The position numbers and the translations under genes were made by a program. From Shigella phage ESH35, in sequence record ON528745: 64,000 nucleotides of DNA; one strand, written 5' to 3'. The notes below the pieces were generated by a model. It was not told the DNA's origin. It was given only the letters and a program-made list of their open reading frames with translations, and ran no database searches. Position 1 is the first letter of the stretch. Every line of letters begins with the position of its first letter. This document shows, piece after piece, positions 721 through 56,505 of the stretch.

Positions 721-1035
721 ATGGAGGTAATGATGTTATACTCAAAGGCTCGTGAAATTTATGAAACTAAAATTAAAGAAGCAGTATTTCAGTTCGCAAC
801 GACAATGCGTTGGACAAATGATTGGGAGTATTCAAAAAATCATAAGAAGCCCTTGGTGACAAGAAAGGCTCATATGTTAGTGTTAATAGACCGTGAGCAG
901 ATTAAAGCCCGAGAAGCCCTCCAGAATCATAAAAAGGCTGCCTTTGAATGGTTTATGGATAACACTGCTCCTGAGACTAAGAAAGCAGTGAGCGCTTGGT
1001 TCAGTGGAAAAAATTGTGAAAGAAGTTTCTTTTAG
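721..1035 (+). CDS. hypothetical early protein
   Basis: 104-aa track ORF with GGAGG just upstream of in-frame ATGs at about 730/733; sits in nrdC-distal plastic region. Confidence 0.4.
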   Translation: MEVMMLYSKAREIYETKIKEAVFQFATTMRWTNDWEYSKNHKKPLVTRKAHMLVLIDREQIKAREALQNHKKAAFEWFMDNTAPETKKAVSAWFSGKNCERSFF

Positions 1036-1037
1036 TT

Positions 1038-1095
1038 GTTTACAAGACTGTTCCTCTGTGGTACTATACAACTATCAACTACGGAGGAACAGAAA
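1038..1095 (+). promoter_or_regulatory. early promoter/leader cassette copy A (PeSL-like)
   Basis: GTTTAC -35, TACTAT -10 after TGTGG, leader ACAACTATCAACTACGGAGGAACAGAAA; 9-bp arms CTGTTCCTC/GAGGAACAG flank the -10; coordinates +/-2. Confidence 0.6.
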
Positions 1096-1623
1096 ATGAA
1101 CGCTAAAGATATTTTCAACTTGGTAAATTACAACGATGGTAAATTTAAATCTGAAGCACAAAGCAAGTTCTTTAATGACATCTCAATCGGAGGTGAAATC
1201 ACTGTTGATGGAGGACAAATTTACAAATCCCGTTGGAATTGGATCGTTATTATCGATGAGATTGGTATTGTAGAAATTTACAAGAATACGAATAAAAATC
1301 GTACATTACACTGGTCTCGTGATACTAACGAACAGTACAAAAAGGATAAAGCATCTAAATTATCTCGTGTAACTCAAGAAGATATTGAGTTCATCAAGAA
1401 AGATATTTTGATGTATGATAACTTAATTGCTGAAGAGCAAGCTGTTATTGATAAATTTGACGAGATTAAAGCTTCTCGTGAAATTCCTGATTTTATGAAA
1501 GAATCAGTAAATGAACGATACACTCTCATTTCAGAGCGTATTGAAACTTACAAAAAGCAAAGAGCTGAACGCCAAAATACTCTTCGGAAGTTTGAAGAAC
1601 GGTTAAAGACGGTACTCGCATAA
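1096..1623 (+). CDS. hypothetical protein with helical/basic C-terminal tail
   Basis: Track ORF 1036..1623 begins inside the promoter cassette; start moved to internal ATG (index 21) preceded by GGAGGAACAGAAA. Confidence 0.55.
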   Translation: MNAKDIFNLVNYNDGKFKSEAQSKFFNDISIGGEITVDGGQIYKSRWNWIVIIDEIGIVEIYKNTNKNRTLHWSRDTNEQYKKDKASKLSRVTQEDIEFIKKDILMYDNLIAEEQAVIDKFDEIKASREIPDFMKESVNERYTLISERIETYKKQRAERQNTLRKFEERLKTVLA

Positions 1624-2086: not shown

Positions 2087-2093
2087 GGAAAAT

Positions 2094-2981: not shown

Positions 2982-2989
2982 GGAACACT

Positions 2990-12471: not shown

Positions 12472-12672
12472 ATGAATCCTGAATCTAAATTATCGCAACG
12501 AATTGCTGAAGCTCGTCGCCAGTTCTTTGAAAATATGATAGCCCAGGGTATTGATGACGAAGTTTTTCTGAACTGGTTTTGGAATCACAAATATTCAAAA
12601 TGCGCAGGAGCAATATTAATATCAGCCGCAATGATGTACGAAGGCTGGAAGGGTGCCAAACAGTTTAGCTAA
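12472..12672 (+). CDS. hypothetical protein
   Basis: 66-aa ORF followed directly by GGGCTTCGGCCC terminator. Confidence 0.45.
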   Translation: MNPESKLSQRIAEARRQFFENMIAQGIDDEVFLNWFWNHKYSKCAGAILISAAMMYEGWKGAKQFS

Positions 12673-12690
12673 GGGCTTCGGCCCTTTTTG
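12672..12690 (+). terminator. intrinsic terminator (UUCG tetraloop)
   Basis: GGGCTTCGGCCC + TTTTTG. Confidence 0.6.
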
Positions 12691-12724
12691 GATAATAAAA
12701 TTTTAACGCAATTGAGGATAATGT

Positions 12725-15107: not shown

Positions 15108-16310
15108 ATGAAAGTATGTATTTTTATGGTTCGAGGTCTTGAAGGTTGTGGTGTAACTAAATTTTCTCTTGAGCAACGTGATTGGTTTATTAAGAATGGT
15201 CATGAAGTAACTTTGGTTTATGCTAAAGATAAATCATTTACTCGTAATTGCGCGCATGATTATAAATCATTTTCAATTCCGGTTTTATTGGCAAAAGAAT
15301 ATGATAAAACACTTAAGCTGGTAAATGATTGTGATATTCTAATTATCAATTCAGTTCCTGCTACTTCGGTTGAAGAAGACACTATTAATAACTATAAAAA
15401 AATTATTGATAACATTAAACCTTCTGTTCGTGTTGTAGTTTATCAACATGACCATTCTTCTCTTTCTTTGCGCCGAAATTTGGGATTAGAAGAAACTGTT
15501 CGTCGAGCTGATGTTATTTTTAGCCATTCTGATAATGGTGATTTTAATAAAGTTCTGATGAAAGAATGGTATCCTGAAACAGTTTCTCTGTTTGATGATA
15601 TTGAAGAAGCACCGACAGTATATAACTTTCAGCCTCCTATGGATATTGCGAAGGTTCGGTCAACCTACTGGAAAGATGTTTCTGAAATTAACATGAATAT
15701 CAACCGTTGGATTGGTCGTACGACCACATGGAAAGGTTTTTATCAGATGTTTGATTTTCATGAAAAACATCTTAAACCTGCAGGACTAAGTACTATTATG
15801 GAAGGTCTGGAACGTTCTCCAGCGTTCATTCCTATTAAAGAAAAAGGAATTCCATACGAGTATTATCGTCTTCATCAAGTAGACCAAATTAAAATTGCTC
15901 CTAATTTGCCAACGCAAATTCTTGACCGTTATGTAAATAGCGAAATGCTTGAACGTATGAGTAAATCCGGATTTGGTTATCAGTTGAGTAAGTTGGATAA
16001 AAAATATCTACAGCGTTCTTTAGAATATACTCATCTCGAGCTTGGTGCATGTGGAACAATTCCGGTATTTTGGAAATCTACTGGCGAAAATTTAAAATTC
16101 CGTGTTGATAATACTCCTTTGACCTCGCATGATAGCGGTATCATTTGGTTTGATGAAAATGATATGGAATCAACATTTGAACGTATTAAAGAACTGTCAT
16201 CTGACCGAGCTCTTTATGACCGTGAGCGAGAAAAAGCATATGAATTTTTGTATCAGCATCAAGATTCAAGCTTCTGCTTTAAAGAACAGTTTGACATTAT
16301 TACAAAATAA
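15108..16310 (+). CDS. a-gt: DNA alpha-glucosyltransferase
   Basis: 400 aa; near-identical to remembered T4 alpha-gt N-terminus MRICIFMARGLEGCGVTKFSLEQRDWFIKNGHEV. Confidence 0.9.
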   Translation: MKVCIFMVRGLEGCGVTKFSLEQRDWFIKNGHEVTLVYAKDKSFTRNCAHDYKSFSIPVLLAKEYDKTLKLVNDCDILIINSVPATSVEEDTINNYKKIIDNIKPSVRVVVYQHDHSSLSLRRNLGLEETVRRADVIFSHSDNGDFNKVLMKEWYPETVSLFDDIEEAPTVYNFQPPMDIAKVRSTYWKDVSEINMNINRWIGRTTTWKGFYQMFDFHEKHLKPAGLSTIMEGLERSPAFIPIKEKGIPYEYYRLHQVDQIKIAPNLPTQILDRYVNSEMLERMSKSGFGYQLSKLDKKYLQRSLEYTHLELGACGTIPVFWKSTGENLKFRVDNTPLTSHDSGIIWFDENDMESTFERIKELSSDRALYDREREKAYEFLYQHQDSSFCFKEQFDIITK

Positions 16311-16335
16311 AGGGCTTCGGCCCTTTAGCTTTATA
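16311..16335 (+). terminator. intrinsic terminator (UUCG tetraloop)
   Basis: GGGCTTCGGCCC + TTTAGCTTTA after alpha-gt. Confidence 0.6.
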
Positions 16336-16490: not shown

Positions 16491-17506
16491 AAATTTTAAA
16501 TTTAGGTGATTGGCATTTAGGCGTTAAAGCCGATGATGAGTGGGTTCAATCCATTCAGTTAGATGGAATTAAACAAGCAATAGAATATTCTAAGAAAAAT
16601 GGAATTACTACCTGGATTCAATATGGTGATATTTTTGATGTGCGAAAAGCAATCACACATAAAACTATGGAGTTCGCTCGTGAAATAGTTCAAATGCTTG
16701 ATGATGCTGGTATTACCCTGCATACTGTTGTAGGAAACCATGATATGCACTTTAAAAATACTTTAACTCCAAATGCCTCTACTGAGCTTTTGGCTAAATA
16801 TCCTAATGTTAAAGTATATGATAAGCCTACTACAGTAGATTTTGACGGATGTTTAATTGATTTAATTCCTTGGATGTGTGAAGAAAATACTGGTGAAATT
16901 CTCGAGCACATAAAAACTTCTTCTGCTTCTTTTTGTGTTGGTCACTGGGAACTGAATGGATTTTATTTTTATAAAGGAATGAAATCTCACGGTCTTGAAC
17001 CTGATTTCCTTAAGACTTATAAAGAGGTGTGGTCTGGTCACTTCCATACTATTTCTGAGGCTGCAAACGTCAGATATATTGGGACACCATGGACACTAAC
17101 TGCAGGTGACGAGAATGACCCTCGTGGGTTCTGGATGTTTGATACAGAAACAGAACGAATGGAATTTATTCCAAACAACACTACCTGGCATCGTAGAATT
17201 CATTATCCATTTAAAGGAAAAATTGACTATAAAGATTTTACAAATCTATCAGTACGTGTTATAGTAACTGAAGTAGACAAAAATCTAACGAAGTTCGAAT
17301 CTGAACTAGAAAAAGTTGTGCATTCGTTACGAGTTGTGTCAAAGATTGATAACTCTGTCGAGTCAGATGACAGTGAAGAAGTTGAAGTTCAATCTCTTCA
17401 GACGTTGATGGAAGAATACATTAATGCAATTCCAGACATCACTGATTCTGACCGCGAAGCACTTATTCAATATGCAAATCAGTTATATGTAGAGGCAACG
17501 CAATGA
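16487..17506 (+). CDS. 47: recombination nuclease subunit gp47 (Mre11-like)
   Basis: 339 aa; phosphoesterase motifs DWHLG, GDIFD, GNHD, GHWE, GHFH. Confidence 0.9.
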   Translation: MKILNLGDWHLGVKADDEWVQSIQLDGIKQAIEYSKKNGITTWIQYGDIFDVRKAITHKTMEFAREIVQMLDDAGITLHTVVGNHDMHFKNTLTPNASTELLAKYPNVKVYDKPTTVDFDGCLIDLIPWMCEENTGEILEHIKTSSASFCVGHWELNGFYFYKGMKSHGLEPDFLKTYKEVWSGHFHTISEAANVRYIGTPWTLTAGDENDPRGFWMFDTETERMEFIPNNTTWHRRIHYPFKGKIDYKDFTNLSVRVIVTEVDKNLTKFESELEKVVHSLRVVSKIDNSVESDDSEEVEVQSLQTLMEEYINAIPDITDSDREALIQYANQLYVEATQ

Positions 17507-17766
17507 CTTTTGATGAATTTAAAAATGTTATGATGAGTCAGCATTTTGAATGCGAAGTAAAAGATGATATTGGTCATAAAGAAATTATTGAATATTGGTT
17601 TGAACCGTTAGAGGTTGAAGATAATTGTATTAAAAAGGTTACAGTCTGCACTGACTGGGCTGTATCTTTTAACTTCAACATTTTAGATAATGACACACCT
17701 AAATCATTACAAGATATGGCTGTATCTTGTATTAAGGATGCATACTGTGAAGTTTTCGACATTTGA
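17503..17766 (+). CDS. hypothetical protein (46.2 position)
   Basis: 87-aa ORF overlapping gene 47 stop. Confidence 0.45.
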   Translation: MTFDEFKNVMMSQHFECEVKDDIGHKEIIEYWFEPLEVEDNCIKKVTVCTDWAVSFNFNILDNDTPKSLQDMAVSCIKDAYCEVFDI

Positions 17767-17953: not shown

Positions 17954-19638
17954 AGAATTTTAAACTAAACCGAGTTAGGTATCAAAATATAATGTCAGTA
18001 GGTGGAAATCCTATTGACATTCAATTAGATAAGGTTCAAAAAACTCTTATTACTGGACGAAATGGCGGTGGTAAGTCTACTATGTTAGAAGCCATCACAT
18101 TTGGGCTTTTTGGCAAGCCATTTCGTGATGTAAAGAAAGGTCAATTAATAAACAGCACAAATAAGAAAGAACTTTTAGTTGAACTGTGGATGGAATATGA
18201 TGAGAAAAAGTACTATATCAAAAGAGGACAAAAACCAAACGTTTTCGAAATCACCGTTAACGGTACACGTCTTAATGAATCTGCCAGCAGTAAAGATTTC
18301 CAAGCAGAATTTGAACAGCTTATCGGAATGTCATATGCCAGTTTCAAGCAGATTGTTGTCCTTGGTACAGCAGGGTATACCCCTTTCATGGGTTTGTCGA
18401 CCCCTGCACGAAGAAAGCTTGTGGAAGACCTGCTTGAGGTAGGAACATTAGCTGAAATGGATAAGCTTAATAAAGCACTAATACGTGAATTAAATTCACA
18501 AAACCAAGTGCTTGATGTTAAAAAAGATAGTATTATCCAACAAATTAAAATATATAATGATAACGTTGAACGCCAGAAAAAATTAACTGGTGACAACCTT
18601 ACTCGTCTTCAAAATATGTATGATGATTTGGCAAAAGAAGCTAGAACGCTAAAATCAGAAATAGAAGAAGCTAATGAAAGATTAGTTAATATTGTTTTAG
18701 ACGAAGACCCGACTGATGCATTTAATAAAATCGGTCAAGAAGCAGTTTTAATTAAATCAAAAATTGACTCGTATAATAAAGTCATTAATATGTATCATGA
18801 AGGTGGATTATGTCCAACCTGCTTGTCACAATTAAGTTCCGGTGATAAAGTTGTTTCTAAAATTAAAGATAAAGTTTCTGAATGTACGCATTCGTTTGAA
18901 CAGCTTTCAACACATCGTGATAATTTAAAAGTTCTTGTTGATGAATACCGAGATAATATTAAAACCCAGCAGTCGTTGGCAAATGATATTCGCAATAAAA
19001 AGCAATCTCTAATCACGACGGTAGATAAAGCTAAAAAAGTTAAAGCAGCTATAGAAAAAGCATCTTCTGAGTTTATTGACCATGCTGATGAAATAGCATT
19101 GCTTCAAGAAGAACTTGATAAAATTGTTAAGACAAAAACTAATTTAGTAATGGAAAAATACCACCGAGGAATTTTGACTGATATGCTCAAAGATTCTGGT
19201 ATTAAAGGTGCTATTATTAAAAAGTACATTCCATTATTTAATAAGCAGATTAACCATTATCTTAAAATAATGGAAGCGGATTATGTGTTTACATTAGATG
19301 AAGAATTTAATGAGACAATTAAATCCCGTGGTCGTGAAGATTTTAGTTATGCTTCATTCAGTCAAGGTGAAAAAGCGCGAATTGATATTGCTCTTTTATT
19401 TACTTGGCGTGATATTGCTGAAAAAGTTTCAGGTGTTAAAATAAGTTGTTTATTTCTTGATGAAGTGTATGACGGTGCATTTGATGCTGAAGGCATTAAA
19501 AATGTAGCTAAAATTTTAGATGGTTTGAAGGATACCAACTTCTTCATAATTTCGCATAAAGACCATGATCCGCAGGATTATGGACAGCATATTAAAATGG
19601 AAAAAGTTGGTAGATTTAGTGTTGCCACTATTAATTAA
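17950..19638 (+). CDS. 46: recombination ATPase subunit gp46 (Rad50/SbcC-like)
   Basis: 562 aa; Walker A GRNGGGKST, central coiled coil with CPTC zinc hook, C-terminal signature/Walker B. Confidence 0.9.
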   Translation: MKNFKLNRVRYQNIMSVGGNPIDIQLDKVQKTLITGRNGGGKSTMLEAITFGLFGKPFRDVKKGQLINSTNKKELLVELWMEYDEKKYYIKRGQKPNVFEITVNGTRLNESASSKDFQAEFEQLIGMSYASFKQIVVLGTAGYTPFMGLSTPARRKLVEDLLEVGTLAEMDKLNKALIRELNSQNQVLDVKKDSIIQQIKIYNDNVERQKKLTGDNLTRLQNMYDDLAKEARTLKSEIEEANERLVNIVLDEDPTDAFNKIGQEAVLIKSKIDSYNKVINMYHEGGLCPTCLSQLSSGDKVVSKIKDKVSECTHSFEQLSTHRDNLKVLVDEYRDNIKTQQSLANDIRNKKQSLITTVDKAKKVKAAIEKASSEFIDHADEIALLQEELDKIVKTKTNLVMEKYHRGILTDMLKDSGIKGAIIKKYIPLFNKQINHYLKIMEADYVFTLDEEFNETIKSRGREDFSYASFSQGEKARIDIALLFTWRDIAEKVSGVKISCLFLDEVYDGAFDAEGIKNVAKILDGLKDTNFFIISHKDHDPQDYGQHIKMEKVGRFSVATIN

Positions 19639-20348
19639 TGTTTGTGCTTACAGTTATCATTATGCCACCTTGATAAATTTCCGAAAGTGGTAACTTTACC
19701 ACAATGGACGCAAGTACCAGTCTTTTCAGTTTTCTTGCGTCCATTTGGATTTTTCTTGCAGAAATTTCTATGCGCTGCGATAACGCATTTCTTGCCTATC
19801 ATTCCGCAGAATTCGCAGGATGTTTCTTCAAGAATGATTGCTTTAAGCCCGTTTGAGATATTATTTCTGTGTTCTTTAGACATCGGTGGTCTAACTTTAG
19901 GATTAGGGTGATTCGGGCAGTTATCAAAATGCCATCGATTCATATTCCCGCTTAATCCGGACTTACCGCAATGTGGACAAGTTAGTCTTGCTTTATTAGC
20001 TACTGCATCAGACATTTTCTTTCGTGTCTCCTGGGAGAATTCTTTATTCTTTTCTATTTCCCAGAGTTTACGACGAATCCAACCGAAAGTTTTATTGTTA
20101 CGTTTAGCGTATTTCGTGGAAACTGTCATCATGTTAGCAGCATAGACTAATTTTGGTTCAGAAGGATAAATTTTTACTAAAAGTTGATGAGCTACATAGT
20201 GCTCTTCCGGTGTTAAATCTACTAAGTTTGAAGCATCATCGCTGCCATTTAAACAGCGTGGTATAATGTGATGAGATTCAGTATAGCAATCAAGTTTTCG
20301 AGATTTAGCATTAGAGATTAACTTTTCATAAATTAGTTTATAATTCAT
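19635..20348 (-). CDS. freestanding HNH homing endonuclease with three C-terminal zinc-finger repeats
   Basis: 237 aa; HNH motif ESHHIIPRCLNGSDDASNLVDLTPEEHYVAH; three CxxCG..RWH..NC modules; opposite strand to all neighbours; TATAAATA late-promoter match about 34 nt upstream. Confidence 0.8.
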   Translation of the reverse strand: MNYKLIYEKLISNAKSRKLDCYTESHHIIPRCLNGSDDASNLVDLTPEEHYVAHQLLVKIYPSEPKLVYAANMMTVSTKYAKRNNKTFGWIRRKLWEIEKNKEFSQETRKKMSDAVANKARLTCPHCGKSGLSGNMNRWHFDNCPNHPNPKVRPPMSKEHRNNISNGLKAIILEETSCEFCGMIGKKCVIAAHRNFCKKNPNGRKKTEKTGTCVHCGKVTTFGNLSRWHNDNCKHKH

Positions 20349-21045: not shown

Positions 21046-21732
21046 ATGAAACTGTCTAAAGATACTACTGCTCTGCTTAAAAATTTCGCTACTATTAACT
21101 CTGGTATTATGCTTAAATCAGGTCAATTTATTATGACTCGTGCGGTTAATGGTACAACTTATGCGGAAGCAAATATTTCTGACGTTATTGATTTTGATGT
21201 AGCAATTTACGATTTGAACGGTTTTCTCGGTATTCTGTCTCTAGTTAATGATGATGCAGAAATTTCCCAGTCAGAAGATGGAAATATTAAAATTGCTGAT
21301 GCCCGCTCAACAATTTTTTGGCCAGCAGCCGATCCGAGTACAGTAGTTGCTCCTAATAAACCAATTCCATTCCCGGTAGCATCTGTTGTTACTGAAATTA
21401 AAGCTGAAGACCTTCAACAGCTGTTGCGTGTATCTCGTGGTCTGCAGATTGATACAATTGCTATCACGGTAAAAGAAGGTAAAATCGTAATTAACGGTTT
21501 TAATAAAGTAGAAGATTCTGCTCTTACCCGTGTTAAATATTCTTTGACTCTTGGTGATTATGATGGTGAAAATACATTTAATTTCATTATCAATATGGCA
21601 AATATGAAAATGCAACCAGGAAATTATAAACTTCTGCTCTGGGCAAAAGGTAAACAAGGCGCTGCTAAATTTGAAGGTGAACACGCGAATTATGTAGTAG
21701 CTCTTGAAGCTGATTCTACCCACGATTTTTAA
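21046..21732 (+). CDS. 45: sliding clamp gp45
   Basis: 228 aa; MKLSKDTTALLKNFATINSGIMLKSGQFIMTRAV recognised as T4 gp45. Confidence 0.95.
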   Translation: MKLSKDTTALLKNFATINSGIMLKSGQFIMTRAVNGTTYAEANISDVIDFDVAIYDLNGFLGILSLVNDDAEISQSEDGNIKIADARSTIFWPAADPSTVVAPNKPIPFPVASVVTEIKAEDLQQLLRVSRGLQIDTIAITVKEGKIVINGFNKVEDSALTRVKYSLTLGDYDGENTFNFIINMANMKMQPGNYKLLLWAKGKQGAAKFEGEHANYVVALEADSTHDF

Positions 21733-21734
21733 TA

Positions 21735-21755
21735 GAGGGCTTCGGCCCTTTATAA
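21735..21755 (+). terminator. intrinsic terminator (UUCG tetraloop)
   Basis: GGGCTTCGGCCC + TTTATAATTT after gene 45. Confidence 0.6.
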
Positions 21756-21783
21756 TTTACACTAAAACTTGAATGAGGAAATT

Positions 21784-23679: not shown

Positions 23680-23901
23680 ATGACTGCTATAATTCCGCAA
23701 GAATACATGGCGTCTCTTAAAGAAAAATATAATCTTTCTGCAACAGAAACACTTTTTGATTTACCAGAAAACCTCCAACTAAAATTTCAGGTAGAATTTC
23801 AAAAATTAGTTCACCCAGAACAAAAACACTTTACCGCAGTGGTTAAGTCAATTAATGCAGATGGATTAACAATTTTTCACCGACAACTGGTATTAATTTA
23901 A
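23680..23901 (+). CDS. hypothetical protein
   Basis: Track ORF 23638..23901 trimmed to ATG index 15; followed by GGGGCTTCGGCCCC terminator. Confidence 0.45.
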   Translation: MTAIIPQEYMASLKEKYNLSATETLFDLPENLQLKFQVEFQKLVHPEQKHFTAVVKSINADGLTIFHRQLVLI

Positions 23902-23904: not shown

Positions 23905-23927
23905 AGGGGCTTCGGCCCCTTATTTGG
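23905..23927 (+). terminator. intrinsic terminator (UUCG tetraloop)
   Basis: GGGGCTTCGGCCCC + TTATTTGG before gene 43. Confidence 0.6.
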
Positions 23928-26687: not shown

Positions 26688-26711
26688 TAGGGACCTCCGG
26701 GTCCCTTTTTC
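26688..26711 (+). terminator. intrinsic terminator
   Basis: GGGACCTCCGGGTCCC + TTTTTC after gene 43. Confidence 0.65.
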
Positions 26712-26779
26712 ATACAAGTAATATAAATCTATACTTATGAAAAACAGATGATTCTGGACCTTTAGAATTCCCTAAAAAA

Positions 26780-26859
26780 TTTTCACAAAACTGTTTACAA
26801 GACTGTTCTTCTGTGGTACTATACAACTATCAACTACTGATACAGATTTGGAGAATAAA
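26780..26859 (+). promoter_or_regulatory. early promoter/leader cassette copy B
   Basis: TTTTCACAAAA UP-like, GTTTACAAGACTGTTCTTCTGTGGTACTATACAACTATCAACTACTGATACAGA leader. Confidence 0.6.
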
Positions 26860-27096
26860 ATGAAAATTGTTATGGGATGCTTAGCAGTTTGTTTAGTTGC
26901 ATTAGTAGCAGTTCCATTTGTTAGTGTTGAAAATGATACTCAACCTGTGATTAAATCTAGCACCGTTATTCACACTAATGGTAAAATATCAGTTAAAATT
27001 GATGATAATCTTCATATGAATACTAATGGAACGTTGGGTGTTCAATTAGGTAATACCTGTGTAAGCACTACTGGAGTAATTACTACTTGTATTTGA
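26860..27096 (+). CDS. small secreted protein (signal peptide)
   Basis: Track ORF 26848 (TTG) trimmed to ATG after GGAGAATAAA; N-terminal MKIVMGCLAVCLVALVAVPFVSV signal-like. Confidence 0.55.
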   Translation: MKIVMGCLAVCLVALVAVPFVSVENDTQPVIKSSTVIHTNGKISVKIDDNLHMNTNGTLGVQLGNTCVSTTGVITTCI

Positions 27097-27106: not shown

Positions 27107-27487
27107 ATGAAAATCGCTATTTTGGTTATTGCATTAGGTCTTACTGGCTGTGTAGCTCAAGGACCGGTAGTAAATCAATCTGATGTAGGAAAAATTGTAA
27201 ACTGTTCAAGCAAATTTTATAATCCTAATGTTAAGTGTTATAAAGAAGCTCCAAAACAGACAGTAGAACAGATGCAGGCGAATTTTGACGAAGCTATTCG
27301 CCCAGATGAATCTGCTCAAGCATATCGTAATTCAGATGTAATTACACGCGAAGAAAAAATTGAAAACTACTGCGCCGAAATTTGGGCTAATTGGGCTAAT
27401 AATTACCAATGGCGTACTGGTAAAAATGCTCCGATGGAGTATGTAGTGAATTCTTATAATTCATGTGTAAAAAATTTGACTAAGTGA
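27107..27487 (+). CDS. putative lipoprotein
   Basis: 126 aa; N-terminal MKIAILVIALGLTGC lipobox (L-T-G-C). Confidence 0.6.
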   Translation: MKIAILVIALGLTGCVAQGPVVNQSDVGKIVNCSSKFYNPNVKCYKEAPKQTVEQMQANFDEAIRPDESAQAYRNSDVITREEKIENYCAEIWANWANNYQWRTGKNAPMEYVVNSYNSCVKNLTK

Positions 27488-31084: not shown

Positions 31085-32512
31085 GTGGTAGAAATTATTC
31101 TTTCTCATCTTATATTTGATCAAGCTTATTTTTCAAAAGTTTGGCCATATATGGATTCAGAATATTTTGAAAGTGGTCCAGCTAAAAATACATTCAAATT
31201 AATTAAATCTCATGTTAATGAGTACCATAGCGTTCCATCTATTAATGCGTTAAATGTTGCATTAGAAAATAGTTCATTTACTGAAACAGAATATTCTGGT
31301 GTAAAAACACTTATTTCAAAACTGGCTGATTCTCCGGAAGACCACAGCTGGTTAGTAAAAGAAACAGAAAAATATGTTCAGCAAAGGGCGATGTTTAACG
31401 CCACATCTAAAATAATTGAAATTCAAACTAATGCTGAGCTTCCTCCGGAAAAACGAAATAAGAAAATGCCGGATGTTGGTGCTATTCCTGACATCATGCG
31501 CCAAGCATTATCAATTTCATTTGATAGTTACGTTGGTCATGATTGGATGGATGACTACGAAGCACGTTGGCTATCTTATATGAATAAAGCTCGTAAGGTT
31601 CCATTTAAACTCAGAATTCTAAACAAAATTACGAAAGGCGGAGCTGAAACTGGAACGCTGAACGTTTTAATGGCTGGCGTTAACGTTGGTAAGTCATTAG
31701 GATTGTGTTCATTGGCAGCAGATTATTTACAGCTCGGACATAATGTTCTTTACATTTCCATGGAAATGGCAGAAGAAGTCTGCGCTAAACGTATTGATGC
31801 TAATATGCTTGATGTTTCTCTTGATGACATTGATGATGGGCATATTTCTTACGCTGAGTATAAAGGAAAAATGGAAAAATGGCGTGAGAAATCTACTCTC
31901 GGTCGTTTAATCGTTAAACAGTATCCTACTGGTGGAGCAGATGCTAATACATTTCGATCGCTTTTAAACGAATTAAAGCTCAAGAAGAATTTTGTTCCAA
32001 CAATCATTATTGTCGACTATCTGGGTATTTGTAAATCTTGCCGCATTAGAGTTTACTCAGAAAATAGTTACACAACTGTTAAAGCCATTGCAGAGGAATT
32101 ACGTGCTCTTGCTGTTGAAACCGAAACTGTTCTTTGGACTGCAGCACAGGTTGGTAAACAAGCTTGGGATTCTTCTGATGTTAACATGAGCGATATTGCA
32201 GAATCTGCCGGTCTTCCAGCAACAGCTGATTTTATGCTTGCGGTCATTGAAACCGAGGAGTTAGCAGCTGCTGAACAACAACTTATTAAGCAAATCAAAT
32301 CACGATATGGTGATAAGAATAAATGGAATAAGTTTTTGATGGGTGTTCAAAAAGGAAATCAGAAATGGGTAGAAATTGAACAAGATTCTACTCCAACCGA
32401 AGTGAGTGAAGTAGCAGGTTCACAACAGATTCAGGCTGAACAGAATCGCTATCAAAGAAACGAATCAGCTCGAGCTCAGTTAGATGCTTTGGCAAATGAA
32501 TTAAAATTTTAG
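31085..32512 (+). CDS. 41: replicative DNA helicase gp41 (DnaB family)
   Basis: 475 aa; Walker A GVNVGKS; GTG start. Confidence 0.95.
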   Translation: MVEIILSHLIFDQAYFSKVWPYMDSEYFESGPAKNTFKLIKSHVNEYHSVPSINALNVALENSSFTETEYSGVKTLISKLADSPEDHSWLVKETEKYVQQRAMFNATSKIIEIQTNAELPPEKRNKKMPDVGAIPDIMRQALSISFDSYVGHDWMDDYEARWLSYMNKARKVPFKLRILNKITKGGAETGTLNVLMAGVNVGKSLGLCSLAADYLQLGHNVLYISMEMAEEVCAKRIDANMLDVSLDDIDDGHISYAEYKGKMEKWREKSTLGRLIVKQYPTGGADANTFRSLLNELKLKKNFVPTIIIVDYLGICKSCRIRVYSENSYTTVKAIAEELRALAVETETVLWTAAQVGKQAWDSSDVNMSDIAESAGLPATADFMLAVIETEELAAAEQQLIKQIKSRYGDKNKWNKFLMGVQKGNQKWVEIEQDSTPTEVSEVAGSQQIQAEQNRYQRNESARAQLDALANELKF

Positions 32513-32545
32513 TTTACAAGCTGACAAGACTATGGTATAGTAGTC
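32512..32545 (+). promoter_or_regulatory. early promoter upstream of dmd with 9-bp inverted repeat across the -10
   Basis: GTTTACAAGCTGA CAAGACTAT GGT ATAGTCTTG. Confidence 0.5.
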
Positions 32546-32570
32546 TTGTTGGTTAAATGAGGAGATTGTT

Positions 32571-32747
32571 ATGGAATTGGTAAAGGTAGTTTTTATGGGG
32601 TGGTTTAAGAATGAAAGCATGTTTACTAAAGAAATCACAATGATGAAAGATGACGTTCAATGGGCTACTACTCAATATGCTGAAGTTAATAAAGCATTAG
32701 TTGAAGCTTTCATTGATGACAAGAAAGTATGTGAAGTGGATTGCTGA
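32571..32747 (+). CDS. dmd: Dmd antitoxin (inhibitor of RnlA/LsoA)
   Basis: Not in track (58 aa); MELVKVVFMGWFKNESMFTKEITMMKDDVQWATTQYAEVNKALVEAFIDDKKVCEVDC recognised as T4 Dmd. Confidence 0.8.
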   Translation: MELVKVVFMGWFKNESMFTKEITMMKDDVQWATTQYAEVNKALVEAFIDDKKVCEVDC

Positions 32748-35386: not shown

Positions 35387-35459
35387 ATGTCCTCCTTATT
35401 GCTTTATATATTTATTGTATAATTAATCTACTAACCCATGAATTGAAAGGAAAAATAAC

Positions 35460-38443: not shown

Positions 38444-38510
38444 TTCAAAAAGTTGTTTACTTTCCTTTCTAACGATGATATGATAGCTTCTGAAGTATAC
38501 GGAGGCTATC

Positions 38511-43642: not shown

Positions 43643-43705
43643 AAAGTTGTTTACTTCCTCGGTTAGTTGTGGTATTATAACACCATAGCTACTGAGGATA
43701 ATAAA

Positions 43706-44218
43706 ATGAAAATTTATCGTGTTGAATCATCGTTTAGCGCATTAAATGATGATAGTGGTATAATGAAAATTAGGCAAGAGTTATGTGTTCAATCAACTCC
43801 TTATCGTGGATTTGATTCTATGAAAACTCGAACTTGGCTAAAATTTTGCGGTATTAATTCATCGTCATTTCATCATCATAGCGATAATTATGAAAGCCAT
43901 GAAAGTATTCCTATTCCACACGATGATAAGTTATTAGTTGAAAATGCTAATGATGCTATTAAAACTAAATGGAATAAAGATTATTCACGAATTGAAAATT
44001 ATATTCCATTGTGGTTTATTGCATTATATCATTTTGCTTTCGCTAGTGAATATGATATAATGAGATGGTTTACTCGAGAAGAGCGTGAAGACTTAAAAGA
44101 TCGTGGAATGTACATTGCGATTTATGAAGTGCCAGATGATCAAGTTATCATTGGTGGGCATCAAGTAATGTTTCGCAAATCGCATGCCGAATTAAAAGGC
44201 TTTATTACCTTAGATTAA
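43706..44218 (+). CDS. hypothetical protein (motB-region)
   Basis: Track ORF 43667 trimmed to ATG after GAGGATAATAAA; 170 aa. Confidence 0.5.
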   Translation: MKIYRVESSFSALNDDSGIMKIRQELCVQSTPYRGFDSMKTRTWLKFCGINSSSFHHHSDNYESHESIPIPHDDKLLVENANDAIKTKWNKDYSRIENYIPLWFIALYHFAFASEYDIMRWFTREEREDLKDRGMYIAIYEVPDDQVIIGGHQVMFRKSHAELKGFITLD

Positions 44219-44227: not shown

Positions 44228-44728
44228 ATGATTAAAATTAATACTACGTATCAAATGAAAAAACCATCTGAAATTGATTTCCAGACAATGTCGAATACGA
44301 CTGATAGCAAGTTTTGGGAACTTCTTGGTACAACTGGCGGATATCCTTTTACTGTTATTAGTGTTAATAGCGGAATTCTCATTGGTACAGTGTACATGGA
44401 AATTAGAAACTATTATGGAAGGGTATCATCATTCATCATCTATGAAGAAGATTTCAATTTATTGACAGAAATTGAAAAAGAAGAACAAGAAAAATCCCAT
44501 ATTGATATGGATTTAGTTTCTATGTATGTAACACCAGTTGAAAAAATTGAAGACCCGACTGATTTGTTGTGTAAGGCAGTTTATATTCGTCGTCCATTCG
44601 CGAATCCGATTGGCGGTTGGGTAACTGATCAGTGGATTGAAGATGGTGTTGAACTTCTGAACGTAGTTCATGCTGGAGAGTACTCTGTAGTTCCTCGCAG
44701 CGCAGTGATTAATGTTCGTGTAAGCTAG
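44228..44728 (+). CDS. hypothetical protein (paralog pair A)
   Basis: 166 aa; C-terminal motif VTDQWIEDGVELLNVVHAGEYSVVP. Confidence 0.5.
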   Translation: MIKINTTYQMKKPSEIDFQTMSNTTDSKFWELLGTTGGYPFTVISVNSGILIGTVYMEIRNYYGRVSSFIIYEEDFNLLTEIEKEEQEKSHIDMDLVSMYVTPVEKIEDPTDLLCKAVYIRRPFANPIGGWVTDQWIEDGVELLNVVHAGEYSVVPRSAVINVRVS

Positions 44729-44801
44729 TTTACAAACTCTTGGGATCAGAGTATAATGGTCCTGCGGAGTATAAAATCTTTTTAACAAGTGAGAGATAAT
44801 T

Positions 44802-45293
44802 ATGAATATTAATATCGGTGAAATTGCTCGTGTATCTGATAAATCCCGTTCTAAAGCAGCAGGAAAATTGGTTGAAGTCGTAAGCATTCAGCTTAAACAT
44901 GGTGTTAAAGATGAAGATTCTGAAGTAAAAGTGCGTATCATTCCTAAAGATGGAATGTCTAAACCTCAGTTTGGTTATGTTCGATGGAAATTTCTTGAGC
45001 CTGCGTTTTTGAAAGCTGTTCCCGCTAAAGGAATTGAAACGATTGATACTTCGCATGTAGGTGTAGACTTTAAGTGGAAACTTGGTCAAGCTATCAAGTT
45101 CGTTGCTCCTTATGAGTTTGAATTTACTGAAGGTGAGGAAGGTGTTGTTAACCGTACTCGCGCTATGTGTGCATACATTACTGATCAATGGGTAGAAGAT
45201 GGCGTTAAGTTATACAACGCGGTATTTTTAGGAACATACAAAGTCATTCCTGAAAGTTGGATTAAACACTACAGCAAAGCTCGCTATGCATAA
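44802..45293 (+). CDS. hypothetical protein (paralog pair B; MotB-sized)
   Basis: 163 aa; C-terminal motif ITDQWVEDGVKLYNAVFLGTYKVIP shared with previous ORF. Confidence 0.5.
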   Translation: MNINIGEIARVSDKSRSKAAGKLVEVVSIQLKHGVKDEDSEVKVRIIPKDGMSKPQFGYVRWKFLEPAFLKAVPAKGIETIDTSHVGVDFKWKLGQAIKFVAPYEFEFTEGEEGVVNRTRAMCAYITDQWVEDGVKLYNAVFLGTYKVIPESWIKHYSKARYA

Positions 45294-45310
45294 AGTTTAA
45301 TTTTTTTTTC

Positions 45311-45391
45311 ATAAAACTATATACATCAGTAGTTGATTATGGTACTATATCAATATCAACTACTGATACAGAAAACAACTTGGAGAATAAA
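45311..45391 (+). promoter_or_regulatory. promoter/leader cassette copy C (degenerate -35, 11-bp inverted repeat)
   Basis: CAGTAGTTGAT...TATGGTACTATATCAAT...ATCAACTACTGATACAGA; same downstream leader as copy B. Confidence 0.5.
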
Positions 45392-45661
45392 ATGGAAAAC
45401 TTAATTATCATCGAGCAATCTTTCAACGATTATGGTATGGCTTACGGTTATCGTGCGATAATGGAAGATTCTCGTGGATGTGTTATCGATATTGCTGAAT
45501 GTAAAGATTTACTGCAGCTTTTGAAGATTGTTCGCAAAAATTGGGATTGTGAAAACATTAAAGCTCGTGTTGTTACAGAAGAAGAAACTGTTTTTCATGA
45601 TGTAAAATTCGCTAAAGGTGCTGCTACTCTTCTGAAACGTATCGCTCCACTGTTCAATTAA
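45392..45661 (+). CDS. hypothetical protein
   Basis: Track ORF 45380 (TTG) trimmed to ATG after GGAGAATAAA, same leader as ORF 26860. Confidence 0.5.
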   Translation: MENLIIIEQSFNDYGMAYGYRAIMEDSRGCVIDIAECKDLLQLLKIVRKNWDCENIKARVVTEEETVFHDVKFAKGAATLLKRIAPLFN

Positions 45662-47137: not shown

Positions 47138-47160
47138 AAGGCCTTCGGGCCTTTAGCTTT
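47138..47160 (+). terminator. intrinsic terminator (UUCG tetraloop)
   Basis: AGGCCTTCGGGCCT + TTAGCTTTA before gene 39. Confidence 0.55.
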
Positions 47161-47206
47161 ATGATTGCCGGAGTATAATATTCCCGAAACCAAACGAGGA
47201 TAAGTG

Positions 47207-52420: not shown

Positions 52421-52440
52421 GGGCTTCGGCCCTTATCATA
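52418..52440 (+). terminator. intrinsic terminator (UUCG tetraloop)
   Basis: AAGGGCTTCGGCCCTT after rIIB. Confidence 0.55.
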
Positions 52441-52647: not shown

Positions 52648-52649
52648 AA

Positions 52650-52710: not shown

Positions 52711-53268
52711 ATGCAGAAAACGAATCCGGGTTTACAGAGACTATTTCAGATTCCGACATTTACCCTATCGAACAGTGACTTGACTAGTGAAATGAAGGTC
52801 AAAATTGCTGATACAGCAAGATACTCTTTAAAACAAAACCCGAACCAGGATAAAGCAGAAGTTATCGAAAGATGCCGTATCGCTGTGTACGCAGAGTTTT
52901 TTGTGGCAGATTGGCTAAGCGGATATGTCAATAAAGGCCAAGAAAATGTCGATGATCCGTACACGTATGCATGGGATGTTTTAGCGCATCCAAAATATTG
53001 CGGGCTTCGTGTAGAAGTCAAAACACATCAAACTGACTCGCGTTGGATTTCGGTAACAACGGGATGCAGCGGAGAGTATCCATATGGTTCTGGAATAAAT
53101 TTAGGGCCCATTCTAAATCATCAAGTCGCTGACTGTATAATTATATTCAACACTAAAGAAATTCATCCAGGTGTCATCCAGTACACTCCGAAGTTCATCG
53201 GTGACAGAGAAGACCTTCGTAAGGTTGTAAGAAAAAGCAACTACAACGGATGGTATCTTTCCATTTAA
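52711..53268 (+). CDS. denB: probable endonuclease IV DenB
   Basis: 185 aa (T4 DenB length) in the position after rIIB. Confidence 0.6.
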   Translation: MQKTNPGLQRLFQIPTFTLSNSDLTSEMKVKIADTARYSLKQNPNQDKAEVIERCRIAVYAEFFVADWLSGYVNKGQENVDDPYTYAWDVLAHPKYCGLRVEVKTHQTDSRWISVTTGCSGEYPYGSGINLGPILNHQVADCIIIFNTKEIHPGVIQYTPKFIGDREDLRKVVRKSNYNGWYLSI

Positions 53269-53269
53269 A

Positions 53270-53344
53270 AATTTTTTCACAAAACGGTTTACATACCACA
53301 AGGACCGTGGTACTATTACCCTATCAACTACGGAGGAGCGGAAA
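53270..53344 (+). promoter_or_regulatory. early promoter/leader cassette copy D
   Basis: TTTTCACAAAACGGTTTAC...CGTGGTACTATTACCCTATCAACTACGGAGGAGCGGAAA. Confidence 0.6.
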
Positions 53345-53608
53345 ATGAAATTTAAATTTTATTACGCTAAACATAAAATAACTGATGAGTTTGTGTCAGT
53401 TGAATATTCTAGCGATGATGAAGGCATGATTTATACTCGCTTAGGATTATCGCATTGGGAGTCTGATCAGCCTTATTTTTCAACTCCCGAAGAAATTACA
53501 CGCTTAGTTAATGGTCATATGAATGACCACTGGAATGTAATTCTTTCAGATAGTCTTAAAGCGGCTATTAATAGTAATGAAATGAAAATCGCTGAGATTG
53601 AGCTATGA
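53345..53608 (+). CDS. hypothetical protein
   Basis: 87-aa ORF driven by promoter-cassette copy D. Confidence 0.45.
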   Translation: MKFKFYYAKHKITDEFVSVEYSSDDEGMIYTRLGLSHWESDQPYFSTPEEITRLVNGHMNDHWNVILSDSLKAAINSNEMKIAEIEL

Positions 53609-54263
53609 GTTCATTATGGTGGTGTTTCGTTTGGTTAATTAGTATTCCATTAATTTGTTTAACATTTACTTTTGTGATGAGGTTATTATGAAAATTTTGA
53701 ATTCTGTACTTATTGCTTGTGCGTGGTGGGTTGCACAGGTTTCAGCAGTGGTGATTGGTATTCACATTTATTACGAATATTTTTAAAAAGTTGTTTACAA
53801 GACTGTTCTTCCGTGGTACTATTACCCTATCAACTACGGAGGAACAGAAAATGAAAAAGATTGTTAAAGCTATATGGAATGTAGTTATAATACTAATAGT
53901 TTTGAGTATATTCCCAATCGTTTTAATGATTGATGTATTAAACGTTTACTTTGGATTTATGTGAGGAAAATATGAATATTGCAAAATTATTAGGAGTTAT
54001 TTCATTTATTTGTTGGATAGTAGCATGTGTTTTAACTATCTGTATTGATGCTAGCAGTGTGTTTTCACAAGCTTTAGCCCAGGGTATGTGTGCATATTTA
54101 ACATTTGTGTTGTTATCTACTAATGATTAAGAAAATCTTGGGCTATTCACTAGCCCTTGCTACTTTATTGGTAGCACTATATTATGGAGTAATGTTCGGA
54201 TTAATTCAAGTCGTGCTTTTCATTTCTGATGTTATTATGGCACTACATTCACTAGTATGGTAA
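53604..54263 (+). other. cluster of at least five short hydrophobic ORFs (28-52 aa), ndd/ac/stp-equivalent region
   Basis: Read by eye: MSSLWWCFVWLISIPLICL.., MKILNSVLIACAWWVAQV.., MKKIVKAIWNVVIILIVLSIFPIVLMI.. (track 53755..53964 trimmed), MNIAKLLGVISFICWIVACVL.., MIKKILGYSLALATLLVALYYGVMFGL..; individual coordinates approximate. Confidence 0.35.
53787..53850 (+). promoter_or_regulatory. early promoter/leader cassette copy E
   Basis: GTTTACAAGACTGTTCTTCCGTGGTACTATTACCCTATCAACTACGGAGGAACAGAAA. Confidence 0.6.
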
Positions 54264-55745: not shown

Positions 55746-55776
55746 TAGGGAGAGCCGAGGCTCTCCCTTTTTTATT
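55746..55776 (+). terminator. intrinsic terminator
   Basis: GGGAGAGCCGAGGCTCTCCC + TTTTTTATTTT after gene 52.1. Confidence 0.7.
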
Positions 55777-55779
55777 TTA

Positions 55780-55869
55780 AAATTTTTTTCACAAAACGGT
55801 TTACAACCAAAGCATACTGTGGTACTATACAACTATCAACTACTGATACAGAATTACGGAGATTAGAAA
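55780..55869 (+). promoter_or_regulatory. early promoter/leader cassette copy F (upstream of motA)
   Basis: TTTTCACAAAACGGTTTAC...CTGTGGTACTATACAACTATCAACTACTGATACAGA. Confidence 0.6.
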
Positions 55870-56505
55870 ATGTCTAAAGTAACTTACATCATCAAAGCTT
55901 CTAACGATGTTCTGAATGAAAAAACTGCTGCGATTTTAATTACTATTGCTAAGAAAGATTTCATTACAGCTGCAGAAGTTCGTGAGGTGCATCCAGATTT
56001 AGGTAACGCAGTAGTTAATAGTAATATTGGGGTATTGATTAAAAAAGGCCTGGTGGAGAAATCTGGTGATGGATTAATCATTACAGGTGAAGCTCAGGAT
56101 ATTATTTCAAACGCAGCAACTTTATACGCGCAGGAAAATGCTCCGGAACTGCTGAAAAAACGAGCAACTCGTAAAGCTCGTGAGATTACTTCTGATATGG
56201 AAGAAGATAAAGACCTCATGTTAAAACTTTTAGATGAAAATGGATTTGTTCTTAAAAAGGTCGAAACTTATCGCAGTAACTATCTCGCTATTTTAGAAAA
56301 ACGCACTCACGGAATTCGTAATTTTGAAATTAACAATAATGGAAATATGCGAATTTTTGGATACAAAATGATGGAACATCATATTCAGAAATTTACTGAT
56401 ATCGGAATGTCATGTAAAATCGCTAAAAACGGTAATGTGTATCTTGACATTAAACGTTCAGCAGAAAACATTGAAGCTGTAATCACTGTAGCATCTGAAC
56501 TGTGA
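55870..56505 (+). CDS. motA: middle-transcription activator MotA
   Basis: 211 aa (T4 MotA length); sequence recognised. Confidence 0.85.
   Translation: MSKVTYIIKASNDVLNEKTAAILITIAKKDFITAAEVREVHPDLGNAVVNSNIGVLIKKGLVEKSGDGLIITGEAQDIISNAATLYAQENAPELLKKRATRKAREITSDMEEDKDLMLKLLDENGFVLKKVETYRSNYLAILEKRTHGIRNFEINNNGNMRIFGYKMMEHHIQKFTDIGMSCKIAKNGNVYLDIKRSAENIEAVITVASEL

Follow-up and report, generated by a model that had tools for sequence, protein, structure and literature searches.

Six recurrent early-promoter and leader cassettes in a T4-like phage genome, probably recombination-linked small-gene modules of the PeSL class

How does one short sequence, carrying both a promoter and a ribosome-binding site, come to stand almost unchanged in front of six genes of a single phage? 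The window considered here, by which we mean the whole stretch of 64,000 nucleotides that was analyzed, belongs to a T4-like phage and holds six near-identical units of about 85 bases each, all on the early-transcribed strand and immediately 5′ of an ORF (Table 1). A first-pass annotation had reported six copies, and every one could be read directly at the position given for it. Our preferred answer, to which we assign a probability of roughly 0.78 from the sequence comparisons below, is that the six are paralogues, cassettes of the PeSL class that join a T4-type early promoter to a leader and function as recombination-linked small-gene modules. The phenomenon as such is already known; T4 early promoters and the linker role of PeSLs were described from 1994 to 2014 (Arbiol 2010; Comeau 2014). 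One point possibly goes beyond this literature: a repeat between promoter spacer and leader that is predicted to hide the ribosome-binding site in read-through RNA only.

By its sequence, the window is from a Tequatrovirus. The region around cassette 2 matches Escherichia phage AR1, along with several hundred other Tequatrovirus genomes, at 98% identity, and the genes run in the order nrdC region, 43, 42, uvsX, 41, dda, motB, 39, rIIA/B, denB, motA and beyond, with the + strand as the early transcription strand. Alignment with T4 leaves about 20 gaps. The segments found in T4 and missing from the window are for the most part homing endonucleases and dam. Eight of the gaps are single small ORFs, and three of these eight begin at cassettes 2, 3, and 4. 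Matches to Rfam families were absent throughout the window.

Table 1. Positions of the six cassettes, the genes behind them, and associated repeats and terminators in the window (+1 sites are inferred)
Feature	Position	Strand	Description
Cassette 1	1021..1098	+	Between nrdC.9 and nrdC.8; spacer S1, discriminator ACAAC, leader type A; -35 GTTTAC 1038-1043; -10 TACTAT 1062-1067; inferred +1 1074; SD GGAGG 1083-1087; ATG 1096
15-bp inverted repeat, cassette 1	1048..1092	+	5′ arm 1048-1062, promoter spacer plus TGG; 3′ arm 1078-1092, leader including SD
nrdC.8	1096..1623	+	175 aa, phrog_2274; behind cassette 1
Intrinsic terminator after gene 43	26689..26711	+	87 nt upstream of the cassette 2 -35
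Cassette 2	26763..26862	+	Spacer S1, discriminator ACAAC, leader type B; -35 26793-26798; -10 26817-26822; inferred +1 26829; GGAGAATAAAA 26850-26860; ATG 26860
78-aa ORF	26860..27096	+	AR1 ar1_049, phrog_4189; between cassette 2 and imm.1
Cassette 3	45296..45394	+	Between motB and cef; discriminator ATCAA, long leader of type B; -35 TATACA 45320-45325; -10 45343-45348; inferred +1 45355; GGAGAATAAAA 45382-45392; ATG 45392
Perfect 13-bp inverted repeat, cassette 3	45325..45367	+	ATCAGTAGTTGAT 45325-45337 and ATCAACTACTGAT 45355-45367, flanking the -10
89-aa ORF	45392..45661	+	AR1 ar1_010, RB51ncORF009c, phrog_3720; behind cassette 3
Cassette 4	53264..53347	+	After denB; spacer S2 with internal CCAC/GTGG hairpin, discriminator TACCC, leader type A; -35 53287-53292; -10 53311-53316; inferred +1 53323; SD 53332-53336; ATG 53345
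87-aa ORF	53345..53608	+	PST ORF268 (99% aa identity), phrog_2390; behind cassette 4
Cassette 5	53776..53853	+	In front of ndd.4; spacer S1, discriminator TACCC, leader type A; -35 53793-53798; -10 53817-53822; inferred +1 53829; SD 53838-53842; ATG 53851
15-bp inverted repeat, cassette 5	53803..53847	+	Arms 53803-53817 and 53833-53847; SD in the 3′ arm
ndd.4	53851..53964	+	37-aa predicted membrane peptide, phrog_3098
Strong intrinsic terminator	55747..55775	+	Stem of 9 bp, 6 of them GC, followed by a T run; 31 nt upstream of the cassette 6 -35
Cassette 6	55776..55872	+	In front of motA; spacer S3, discriminator ACAAC, leader type B; -35 55799-55804; -10 55823-55828; inferred +1 55835; GGAGATTAGAA 55858-55868; ATG 55870
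motA	55870..56505	+	Activator of middle transcription

The units are recognized by a 24-base core, TGGTACTAT-N5-TATCAACTAC (that is, TGGTACTATNNNNNTATCAACTAC), which has exactly six matches in the window, all on the + strand and without mismatch, at 1059, 26814, 45340, 53308, 53814, and 55820; allowing up to two mismatches yielded no further match there. The pattern has 19 specified bases, and its expectation in shuffled sequence is 0.00. A repeat search of the window grouped the six copies as families D1-D3, of 58-78 nt. Aligned together, they give 111 columns at a mean column identity of 73%, with three invariant blocks: TGGTACTAT, the 10-mer TATCAACTAC, and AAAATG at the start codon.

Each copy has the parts of an early promoter: an A/T tract, a -35 element that reads GTTTAC in five of six, a 17-bp spacer, and a TGn-extended -10, TACTAT. 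The full arrangement is TTTACA-N17-TACTAT in five copies and TATACA-N17-TACTAT in copy 3, the -35 of which (TATACA) is degenerate; TGG precedes the -10 in all. The spacing originally proposed, GTTTAC-N17-TGGTACTAT, has to be corrected: it has no match, since the gap is 15, and 17 holds between the hexamers TTTACA and TACTAT. Upstream of the -35, the A/T tract is of the TTTTCACAAAA type in copies 2, 3, 4, and 6, and is TTTTTAAAAAG or TTTCTTTTAG in copies 5 and 1. A variable discriminator of 5 nt separates the -10 from TATCAACTAC, and the 3′ end of every cassette consists of a Shine-Dalgarno (SD) sequence and start codon, with GGAG(G) 8-10 nt 5′ of ATG in 6/6 copies. These predicted promoters fit both the T4 early consensus (GTTTAC at -36..-31, A-rich at -40..-44, T-12 A-11 T-7) and the PST/T4 PeSL consensus TTTACW-N17-TAYWAT. 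When the start site is placed by the published T4 numbering (-10 at -12..-7, GTTTAC at -36..-31), it falls on the A of TATCAACTAC; all six mRNAs would thus begin AUCAACUAC, with leaders of probably 22-37 nt only.

To what extent are the six more than ordinary early promoters? A promoter scan found 17 good early-type promoters on the + strand of the window. All 17 have the upstream half TTTCA-AAA-gtTGTTTAC in common, and many have a loose CTAC(T)GAGGAG leader ending about 28 nt past the -10. The combination of TACTAT with TATCAACTAC occurs only in the six; the other 11 differ in the -10 hexamer or the leader. The claim of a conserved leader beyond the generic early promoter is borne out, the combination of this -10, the TATCAACTAC block, and two fixed SD modules being absent from those 11. 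The promoter at 33015 is a distant relative of the six cassettes.

The leaders end in two ways, as had been described. Type A, in copies 1, 4, and 5, ends GGAGGA(A/G)C(A/G)GAAA-ATG, and type B, in copies 2, 3, and 6, ends TGATACAGA..GGAGA..-ATG. Both resemble targets of RegB, which cuts within GGAG Shine-Dalgarno sequences and so inactivates early mRNAs. The optimum for RegB/S1 in T4 is the single-stranded 11-mer GGAGAAUAAAA, with the consensus GGAGRAYARAA, and among T4 transcripts, that of motA is cut well and that of nrdC.8 moderately (Durand et al. 2006, PMC1702504). In leaders 2 and 3 the site reads GGAGAATAAAA, an exact match to this optimum; leader 6 (GGAGATTAGAA / GGAGAUUAGAA) has one deviation from the 11-mer, and type A leaders (GGAGGAACAGA) have three deviations from the consensus. 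For the conserved 3′ module, the best reading is a ribosome-binding site with a second, predicted role as a RegB switch-off site. At its 5′ end, the type B leader has a 4-bp hairpin, AUCA/UGAU, too weak to support any conclusion.

The genes behind the cassettes had been described as five small ORFs of unknown function plus motA. That one copy drives motA and that no function is known for any of the other five both stand. The product of nrdC.8, at 175 aa, is not small, and "unknown" needs qualifying, as four of the five bear the name of a gene or ORF of T4, PST, or AR1 and a PHROG family exists for all five. No Pfam domain was found in any cargo ORF; the N terminus of the 78-aa ORF is signal peptide-like.

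Comparison with relatives shows gene content varying at three of the six loci (2, 3, and 4), with breakpoints inside the cassette or at its edge. Identical content everywhere, the alternative outcome of this comparison, was not seen. Locus 2 exists in three states. The 78-aa ORF is present in 316/518 records; in T4, T6, PST, and RB3 it is missing and the same cassette directly fronts imm.1, with the deletion junction on the repeat ATGAAAAT; and T2, RB27, RB51, RB68, and UFV13 have an unrelated 83-aa ORF (phrog_18567) behind a type A leader. In phages with this 83-aa ORF, homology to the window stops right after TATCAACTAC and restarts at the imm.1 ribosome-binding site. At locus 3, T4, PST, and RB14 have a 200-bp internal deletion of the 89-aa ORF that leaves an 11-codon remnant, a T4-type deletion present in about half of the sampled records, and in phages of the RB51 type the cassette's 5′ edge is the exact point at which homology sets in. 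Four states are seen at locus 4: the cassette with the last 8 codons of the 87-aa ORF (T4 and RB18), a type B leader with that ORF (Kha5h), the ORF with a discriminator and type A leader like those of neighboring cassette 5 (the window), and ORF269 ahead of ORF268 (PST).

The suggestion that the cargo was recently shuffled accordingly holds for copies 2, 3, and 4 and fails for the nrdC.8, ndd.4, and motA copies, which are collinear in relatives: locus 1 in about 500 Tequatrovirus records, and loci 5 and 6 in T4, Kha5h, RB18, and PST. In RB69-like phages, the block of cassette plus nrdC.8 is the only part that can be aligned. The sole indel near locus 5 is the window phage's own 1.1-kb ndd deletion, which lies on a different repeat, a 16-bp identical ribosome-binding region (GTGAGGAAAATATGAA), and involves no cassette. 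Cassettes adjoin an indel relative to T4 in 3/6 cases, versus 0/11 for the other early promoters (hypergeometric p = 0.029); against a gene-boundary null, the enrichment is modest (p of about 0.01 when small-ORF indels are counted and of about 0.1 when all are). No indel relative to the close relative AR1 lies at a cassette.

Exchange is also visible within the cassettes, where spacer, discriminator, and leader types combine differently between loci and, at one locus, between phages. The S1 spacer goes with leader A in copies 1 and 5 and with leader B in copy 2. In the window, TACCC and leader A precede the 87-aa ORF, where Kha5h, T4, and RB18 have ACAAC and leader B; in contig L038, it is ACAAC that stands in the ndd.4 cassette; a different ORF follows leader A at the 43|imm.1 locus of UFV13; and in T4, the leader at imm.1 and the one after denB hardly differ up to and including the fourth codon. 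A seventh copy lies outside the window, before e.8 in related genomes; over 85 nt it has 92% identity with copy 2, its flanks are unrelated, and the homology spans 26763-26846 of the window. The contigs with this copy (L039, L015, and L020), in which the cassette and 14 nt upstream match copy 2, were considered as further 43|imm.1 alleles and rejected, their ORF being T4 e.8 (tblastn) and their match to the window being confined to the cassette. By sequence, the e.8 cassette is a seventh paralogue and not an allele of locus 2.

The cargo ORFs themselves were not found at a second site among the Tequatrovirus loci compared, where each keeps its own locus. Outside the genus, the Dhakavirus IME08 has a 55%-identical homologue of the 83-aa cargo between rI.-1 and mobD.3, preceded by a terminator and by a cassette of the same type (GTTTAC-N14-TGATACTAT-AGACC-TATCAACTAATGAGGAG). 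Therefore, a unit of cassette plus ORF occurs at two different loci in two genera.

Taken together, these comparisons suggest how the cassettes may work. Straight after infection, unmodified host sigma-70 RNA polymerase would start at the A of TATCAACTAC. A few minutes later, the phage RegB/S1 nuclease would cut GGAG in the SD, so that expression would be limited to the immediate-early period. The units could be insulated from upstream transcription by an intrinsic terminator (copies 2 and 6) or by an inverted repeat between spacer and leader (copies 1, 3, and 5; weak in copy 4), with the hairpin of the latter able to form only in read-through RNA. Given 60-100 bp of near identity, the copies may be substrates of phage homologous recombination, with segments exchanged between copies. 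The first gene behind a copy is often deleted, replaced, or added, and we propose that the whole unit of cassette plus small ORF behaves like a moron-type expression module.

Would strong promoters alone suffice? On that account, the units are alike because of selection on RNA polymerase and ribosome contacts and have no role in recombination; indels would be microhomology deletions, and allelic replacement would reflect crossovers in flanking genes. Cargo keeping its own locus within the genus and the stability of three loci in the relatives examined both agree with this. So do the deletion junctions, which lie on short start-codon repeats. Microhomology of 8-16 nt at translation starts can explain three indels (ATGAAAAT at loci 2 and 4, an imperfect ATGGAAAA/ATGTAAAA at locus 3), and the ndd deletion used its 16-bp identical translation-initiation region; two cassettes are unneeded for any of these. 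We nonetheless regard the account as unlikely, for it leaves much unexplained. Identity runs through positions without a known contact constraint, and the S1 spacer is common to three loci, one of which lacks the complementary leader. Discriminator and leader modules have been reassorted between orthologous loci, and in UFV13 and T4 the homology ends within the cassette, immediately past TATCAACTAC. IME08 has the same unit of cargo and cassette at another locus, and in RB49/phi1, recombination between PeSLs was demonstrated experimentally (Arbiol et al. 2010, PMC2839356). We give practically no credence to two further ideas, that the units are middle promoters dependent on MotA or that they are a repeat due to chance or low complexity. 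A -10-like element is all that is shared with middle promoters; the MotA box (TGCTT near -30) is absent from the cassettes and the -35 is GTTTAC, and six exact copies of the core, where 0.00 are expected, speak against chance. Both ideas were rejected.

If the units are recombination-linked PeSL-class cassettes, what of the stem-loops? Five of the six copies have one within or next to the promoter, as a repeat (copies 1, 3, and 5) or as an upstream terminator (copies 2 and 6). That several copies have inverted repeats bracketing the -10 was rightly noted, and in three these are significant (z -4.4 in copy 1, -5.0 in copy 3, and -3.3 in copy 5), with the -10 within the hairpin loop. Such repeats were not significant in copies 2 or 4; the stems of copy 4 are all weak, at 4-7 bp (z -0.4), and the sole strong structure of copy 6 is its upstream terminator, the counterpart of which is annotated as a terminator in Kha5h. 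In copies 1 and 5, the 15-bp repeat pairs the spacer sequence CTGTTC(C/T)TC(T/C)GTGGT with the leader sequence ACTACGGAGGAACAG, giving a duplex of -26.0 kcal/mol in copy 1 and -25.5 kcal/mol in copy 5. In copy 3, the 3′ arm excludes the SD.

Pairing of this kind extends beyond the cassettes. Across the 17 early promoters of the window, the spacer pairs better with its own leader than with other leaders (permutation p = 0.0015), and 7/17 have strong spacer-leader pairing, with a different sequence in each; apart from copies 1, 3, and 5, pairing is best at 43649 (the motB.2 promoter) and at 32512. A spacer-leader repeat is lacking in about 60% of early promoters. In JS98-type phages, a perfect 11-bp pair, ATCTCCTGTAG/CTACAGGAGAT, surrounds the same core; there and in other T4-like contigs, the pairing is built from independent sequences. 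Among T4-like contigs of IMG/VR, with cassettes sorted by separate spacer and leader classes, 7/36 observed class combinations pair at -12 kcal/mol or below, compared with 39/589 unobserved combinations (p = 0.0006). Single-linkage clustering of these cassettes was dropped because it collapsed to 1-8 clusters, spacers and leaders being reassorted.

Thermodynamic prediction links these repeats to the ribosome-binding site. The predicted unpaired SD fraction is 0.40 in the own transcript of copy 1 and 0.75 in that of copy 5, versus 0.00 in read-through RNA for both; with motB.2 (43649) and the promoter at 38455 included, the range is 0.39-0.86 for own transcripts and again 0.00 for read-through. 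These four have the geometry of a gate, with the SD predicted to be paired in upstream-initiated RNA and the 5′ arm upstream of the start site. That geometry is missing in copies 2, 4, and 6, and in copy 3 the arm leaves the SD uncovered. We tentatively consider, as a possibility raised by these predictions but at clearly less than even odds, that in a large minority of T4-type early promoters the non-contacted spacer between -35 and -10 is complementary to the promoter's own leader, and often to its SD, forming a translational gate set by the origin of the transcript. The first gene would then be translated only from its own immediate-early transcript and be silent on longer early and middle read-through RNAs. 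Such a gate, if real, would explain why spacer and leader modules travel together and why the repeat is absent from cassettes with an upstream terminator. An inverted repeat and an upstream terminator never occurred together among the early promoters (0/17), a result that is not significant (p = 0.088).

The repeats might instead act on DNA, as a cruciform or hairpin target of recombination or endonuclease VII or as a by-product of template switching, or they might be attenuators or processing sites of upstream transcripts, with no action on downstream translation. This, too, seems possible though doubtful. PeSL stem-loops have been read as terminators or attenuators and as possible recombination targets, with termination measured in RB49 (Arbiol 2010, PMC2839356), and the SD-free 3′ arm of copy 3 fits such roles. 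The evidence from strand asymmetry for action as RNA is also weak: an unbiased count of wobble positions gave 11 G.T versus 4 A.C, which at p = 0.06 and with redundant data is suggestive only. An asymmetry between sense and antisense folding (mean -5.2 kcal/mol, p = 0.003) was discounted as biased because the cases had been picked by sense-strand energy. Against these roles, the hairpins of copies 1, 3, and 5 are not followed by a T run and so are not canonical intrinsic terminators; in copies 1 and 5 and in motB.2 the 3′ arm covers the SD, which in these and at 38455 is predicted to be fully paired in read-through RNA only; and all wobble positions of copies 1 and 5 are G.U on the sense strand.

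Several uses follow from reading the units as recombination-linked PeSL-class cassettes. The six cassettes and the e.8 copy should serve as reliable markers of immediate-early transcription units, and they mark places where small genes are gained, lost, or swapped between related phages. By sequence, they may also flag the variable small ORFs most likely to have host-takeover or antidefense functions, namely, the 78-, 89-, and 87-aa ORFs and the T2-type 83-aa alternative. The gate, should it prove true, would mean a further level of control in T4 early expression and would give a functional reason for the "SL" part of T-even PeSLs.

It remains to set the cassettes beside known systems. T4 early promoters have a UP-like A tract, GTTTAC at -36..-31, TGn, a -10, and extra conserved positions, and are read by unmodified host polymerase (Hinton 2010, PMC2988021; Nolan 2006, PMC1524935). 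The window cassettes carry the same elements but differ from the class as a whole in forming a tight subfamily of six, with a -10 (TACTAT) that is not TATAAT-like, an invariant TATCAACTAC, and two fixed SD modules. They share with the RegB/S1 sites of T4 early mRNAs a GGAG inside the SD followed by an A-rich tract; type A (GGAGGAACAGA) is off consensus, and cleavage is known from T4, whereas the sites here are predictions from sequence.

For gating, the parallel is with T4 e, soc, 49, and I-TevI, in which the SD is sequestered in a helix only in longer RNA initiated upstream, while transcripts from a promoter inside the hairpin lack the 5′ arm and are translated (Uzan & Miller 2010, PMC3014915). 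The cassette SD is likewise predicted to be hidden in upstream-initiated RNA alone. In the known cases, late promoters go with the silencing of early read-through, whereas here the internal promoter is early, so that an early-promoter gate would mirror the classical late-promoter gating of these genes. A full-text literature search on T4 early promoters with inverted repeats, read-through, and the SD found no paper devoted to this subject.

The closest relatives are the PeSLs themselves, and the match proposed at the outset is upheld by the presence of the published parts: A/T tract, TTTACW-N17-TAYWAT, SD plus ATG, and, in five of the six copies, a stem-loop or terminator. In RB49 and phi1, PeSLs are cassettes of about 100 bp that combine promoter, stem-loop, and SD and stand between small ORFs; their stem-loops may overlap the -35 and -10 boxes or fall between the two, crossovers are located between the -10 and ATG, and they act as linkers for modular shuffling, with mini-circles shown (Arbiol et al. 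2010, PMC2839356). The window cassettes have the same composite make-up. The RB49 PeSLs differ in having near-perfect TTGACA/TATAAT boxes and stems of G runs and C runs, with no sequence kinship to the window cassettes, and the mini-circles are RB49/phi1 data. At T-even internal-protein loci, repeats of T4 early promoters with weak AT-rich stem-loops flank highly variable small genes (Repoila et al. 1994, as summarized in Arbiol 2010, PMC2839356). These, as described in that summary, are similarly early-promoter based and lie beside variable small genes, though at other loci, outside the window. Nearest of all are the PeSLs of PST and T4, which have an A/T tract, TTTACW-N17-TAYWAT, and SD plus ATG at the 3′ end and are linked to small-ORF indels (Comeau, Arbiol & Krisch 2014, PMC4122927). 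They come from the same genus and have the same architecture as the window cassettes, and cassette 4 with its 87-aa ORF (PST ORF268) lies at the locus of the example in its figure 6A. That paper places the T-even stem-loops just upstream of the promoter; here, only copies 2 and 6 have them there, as terminators, whereas the repeats of copies 1, 3, and 5 bracket the -10 and reach the leader.

A segment of about 1.1 kb, comprising ndd.3/2a, ndd.2, ndd.1 and the nucleoid disruption gene ndd, as well as stp in those relatives that carry it, is missing from ESH35. Identical 16-bp copies of a translation-initiation region, GTGAGGAAAATATGAA, bound the deletion on both sides, and the end of ndd.4 is now joined to ac. 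Even the best match to ESH35 across this junction, among 912 matching phage records, falls in two pieces, and thus none of these records appears to have the same deletion.

Relative to T4, the junctions of the small-ORF indels at cassettes #2 (before imm.1), #3 (motB/cef) and #4 (after denB), that is, loci 2 to 4, fall on repeats of 8 nt located at start codons or close to them. BLAST comparison of the window with T4 gave an overlap of -8 for the indels of loci 2 and 3 as well as for another indel (44479/44538).

Other differences from T4 were also seen. The dam methyltransferase gene is missing, as it is in the close relative AR1, and none of the T4 homing endonucleases I-TevII, mobC, mobB, segF, segA and mobA is present in the window. 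A 783-bp insert in the gene 46/45.2 interval contains an HNH-type homing-endonuclease-like ORF of 237 amino acids, which T4 and AR1 do not have at this place. A second insert, of 215 bp, in the regA/gene 43 interval, is likewise missing in T4 and AR1; it carries a 73-amino-acid ORF (MTAIIPQEYMASLKEKYN...), with a GC-rich UUCG-type hairpin 3′ of the ORF, immediately before the translational operator region of gene 43. Upstream of nrdC.9 lies an ORF of 192 amino acids for which T4 has no counterpart at the corresponding position; T6 and RB33 carry it too, annotated there as a site-specific intron-like DNA endonuclease.

Coordinates and properties of the features discussed (window positions unless another sequence is named)
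Feature	Position	Details
ndd deletion junction	53961-53976	
Segment missing from ESH35	Kha5h (L003) 2088-3191	comparison with Kha5h
Locus 2 junction repeat	26860-26867 / 27107-27114	ATGAAAAT
Locus 3 junction repeat	45392-45399 / 45600-45607	imperfect pair, ATGGAAAA/ATGTAAAA
Locus 4 junction repeat	53345 region	ATGAAAAT
dam, missing	35397-35438	T4 16846-17625
HNH-type ORF	19635-20348	- strand
73-aa ORF	23680-23901	+ strand
Hairpin 3′ of 73-aa ORF	23906-23922	
192-aa ORF	72-650	+ strand
e.8 cassette	L039 1238-1345	also L015, L020 (all IMG/VR Tequatrovirus contigs); T4 about 70.6 kb
motB.2 promoter	43649-43708	18 bp pairing including Shine-Dalgarno (SD), -25 kcal/mol
Promoter 32512	32512-32573	perfect 9-bp repeat around -10
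motB promoter	44728-44810	spacer or -10 complementary to own leader
Promoter 38455	38455-38510	predicted SD unpaired fraction: own transcript 0.86, read-through RNA 0.00
UUCG-tetraloop hairpin family	12661-12701, 16304-16334, 21729-21759, 47132-47162, 52409-52449, 52641-52681	

One more copy of the cassette, the seventh, stands outside the window, in front of gene e.8; its identity to cassette #2 is 92% over an 85-nt stretch that takes in 14 nt on the 5′ side of the A/T tract. Among the early promoters other than the six cassettes, there were four more cases in which spacer or -10 sequence is complementary to the promoter's own leader.

An Rfam scan of both strands of the whole 64 kb returned no family at the gathering score. 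A repeat search brought out an intergenic family of hairpins with a UUCG tetraloop, GGGCTTCGGCCC, which are likely terminators. As cited in a later paper, Mosig (1998) tied GGGC/GCCC motifs to T4 deletions; the UUCG-tetraloop hairpins of ESH35 are reminiscent of these motifs.
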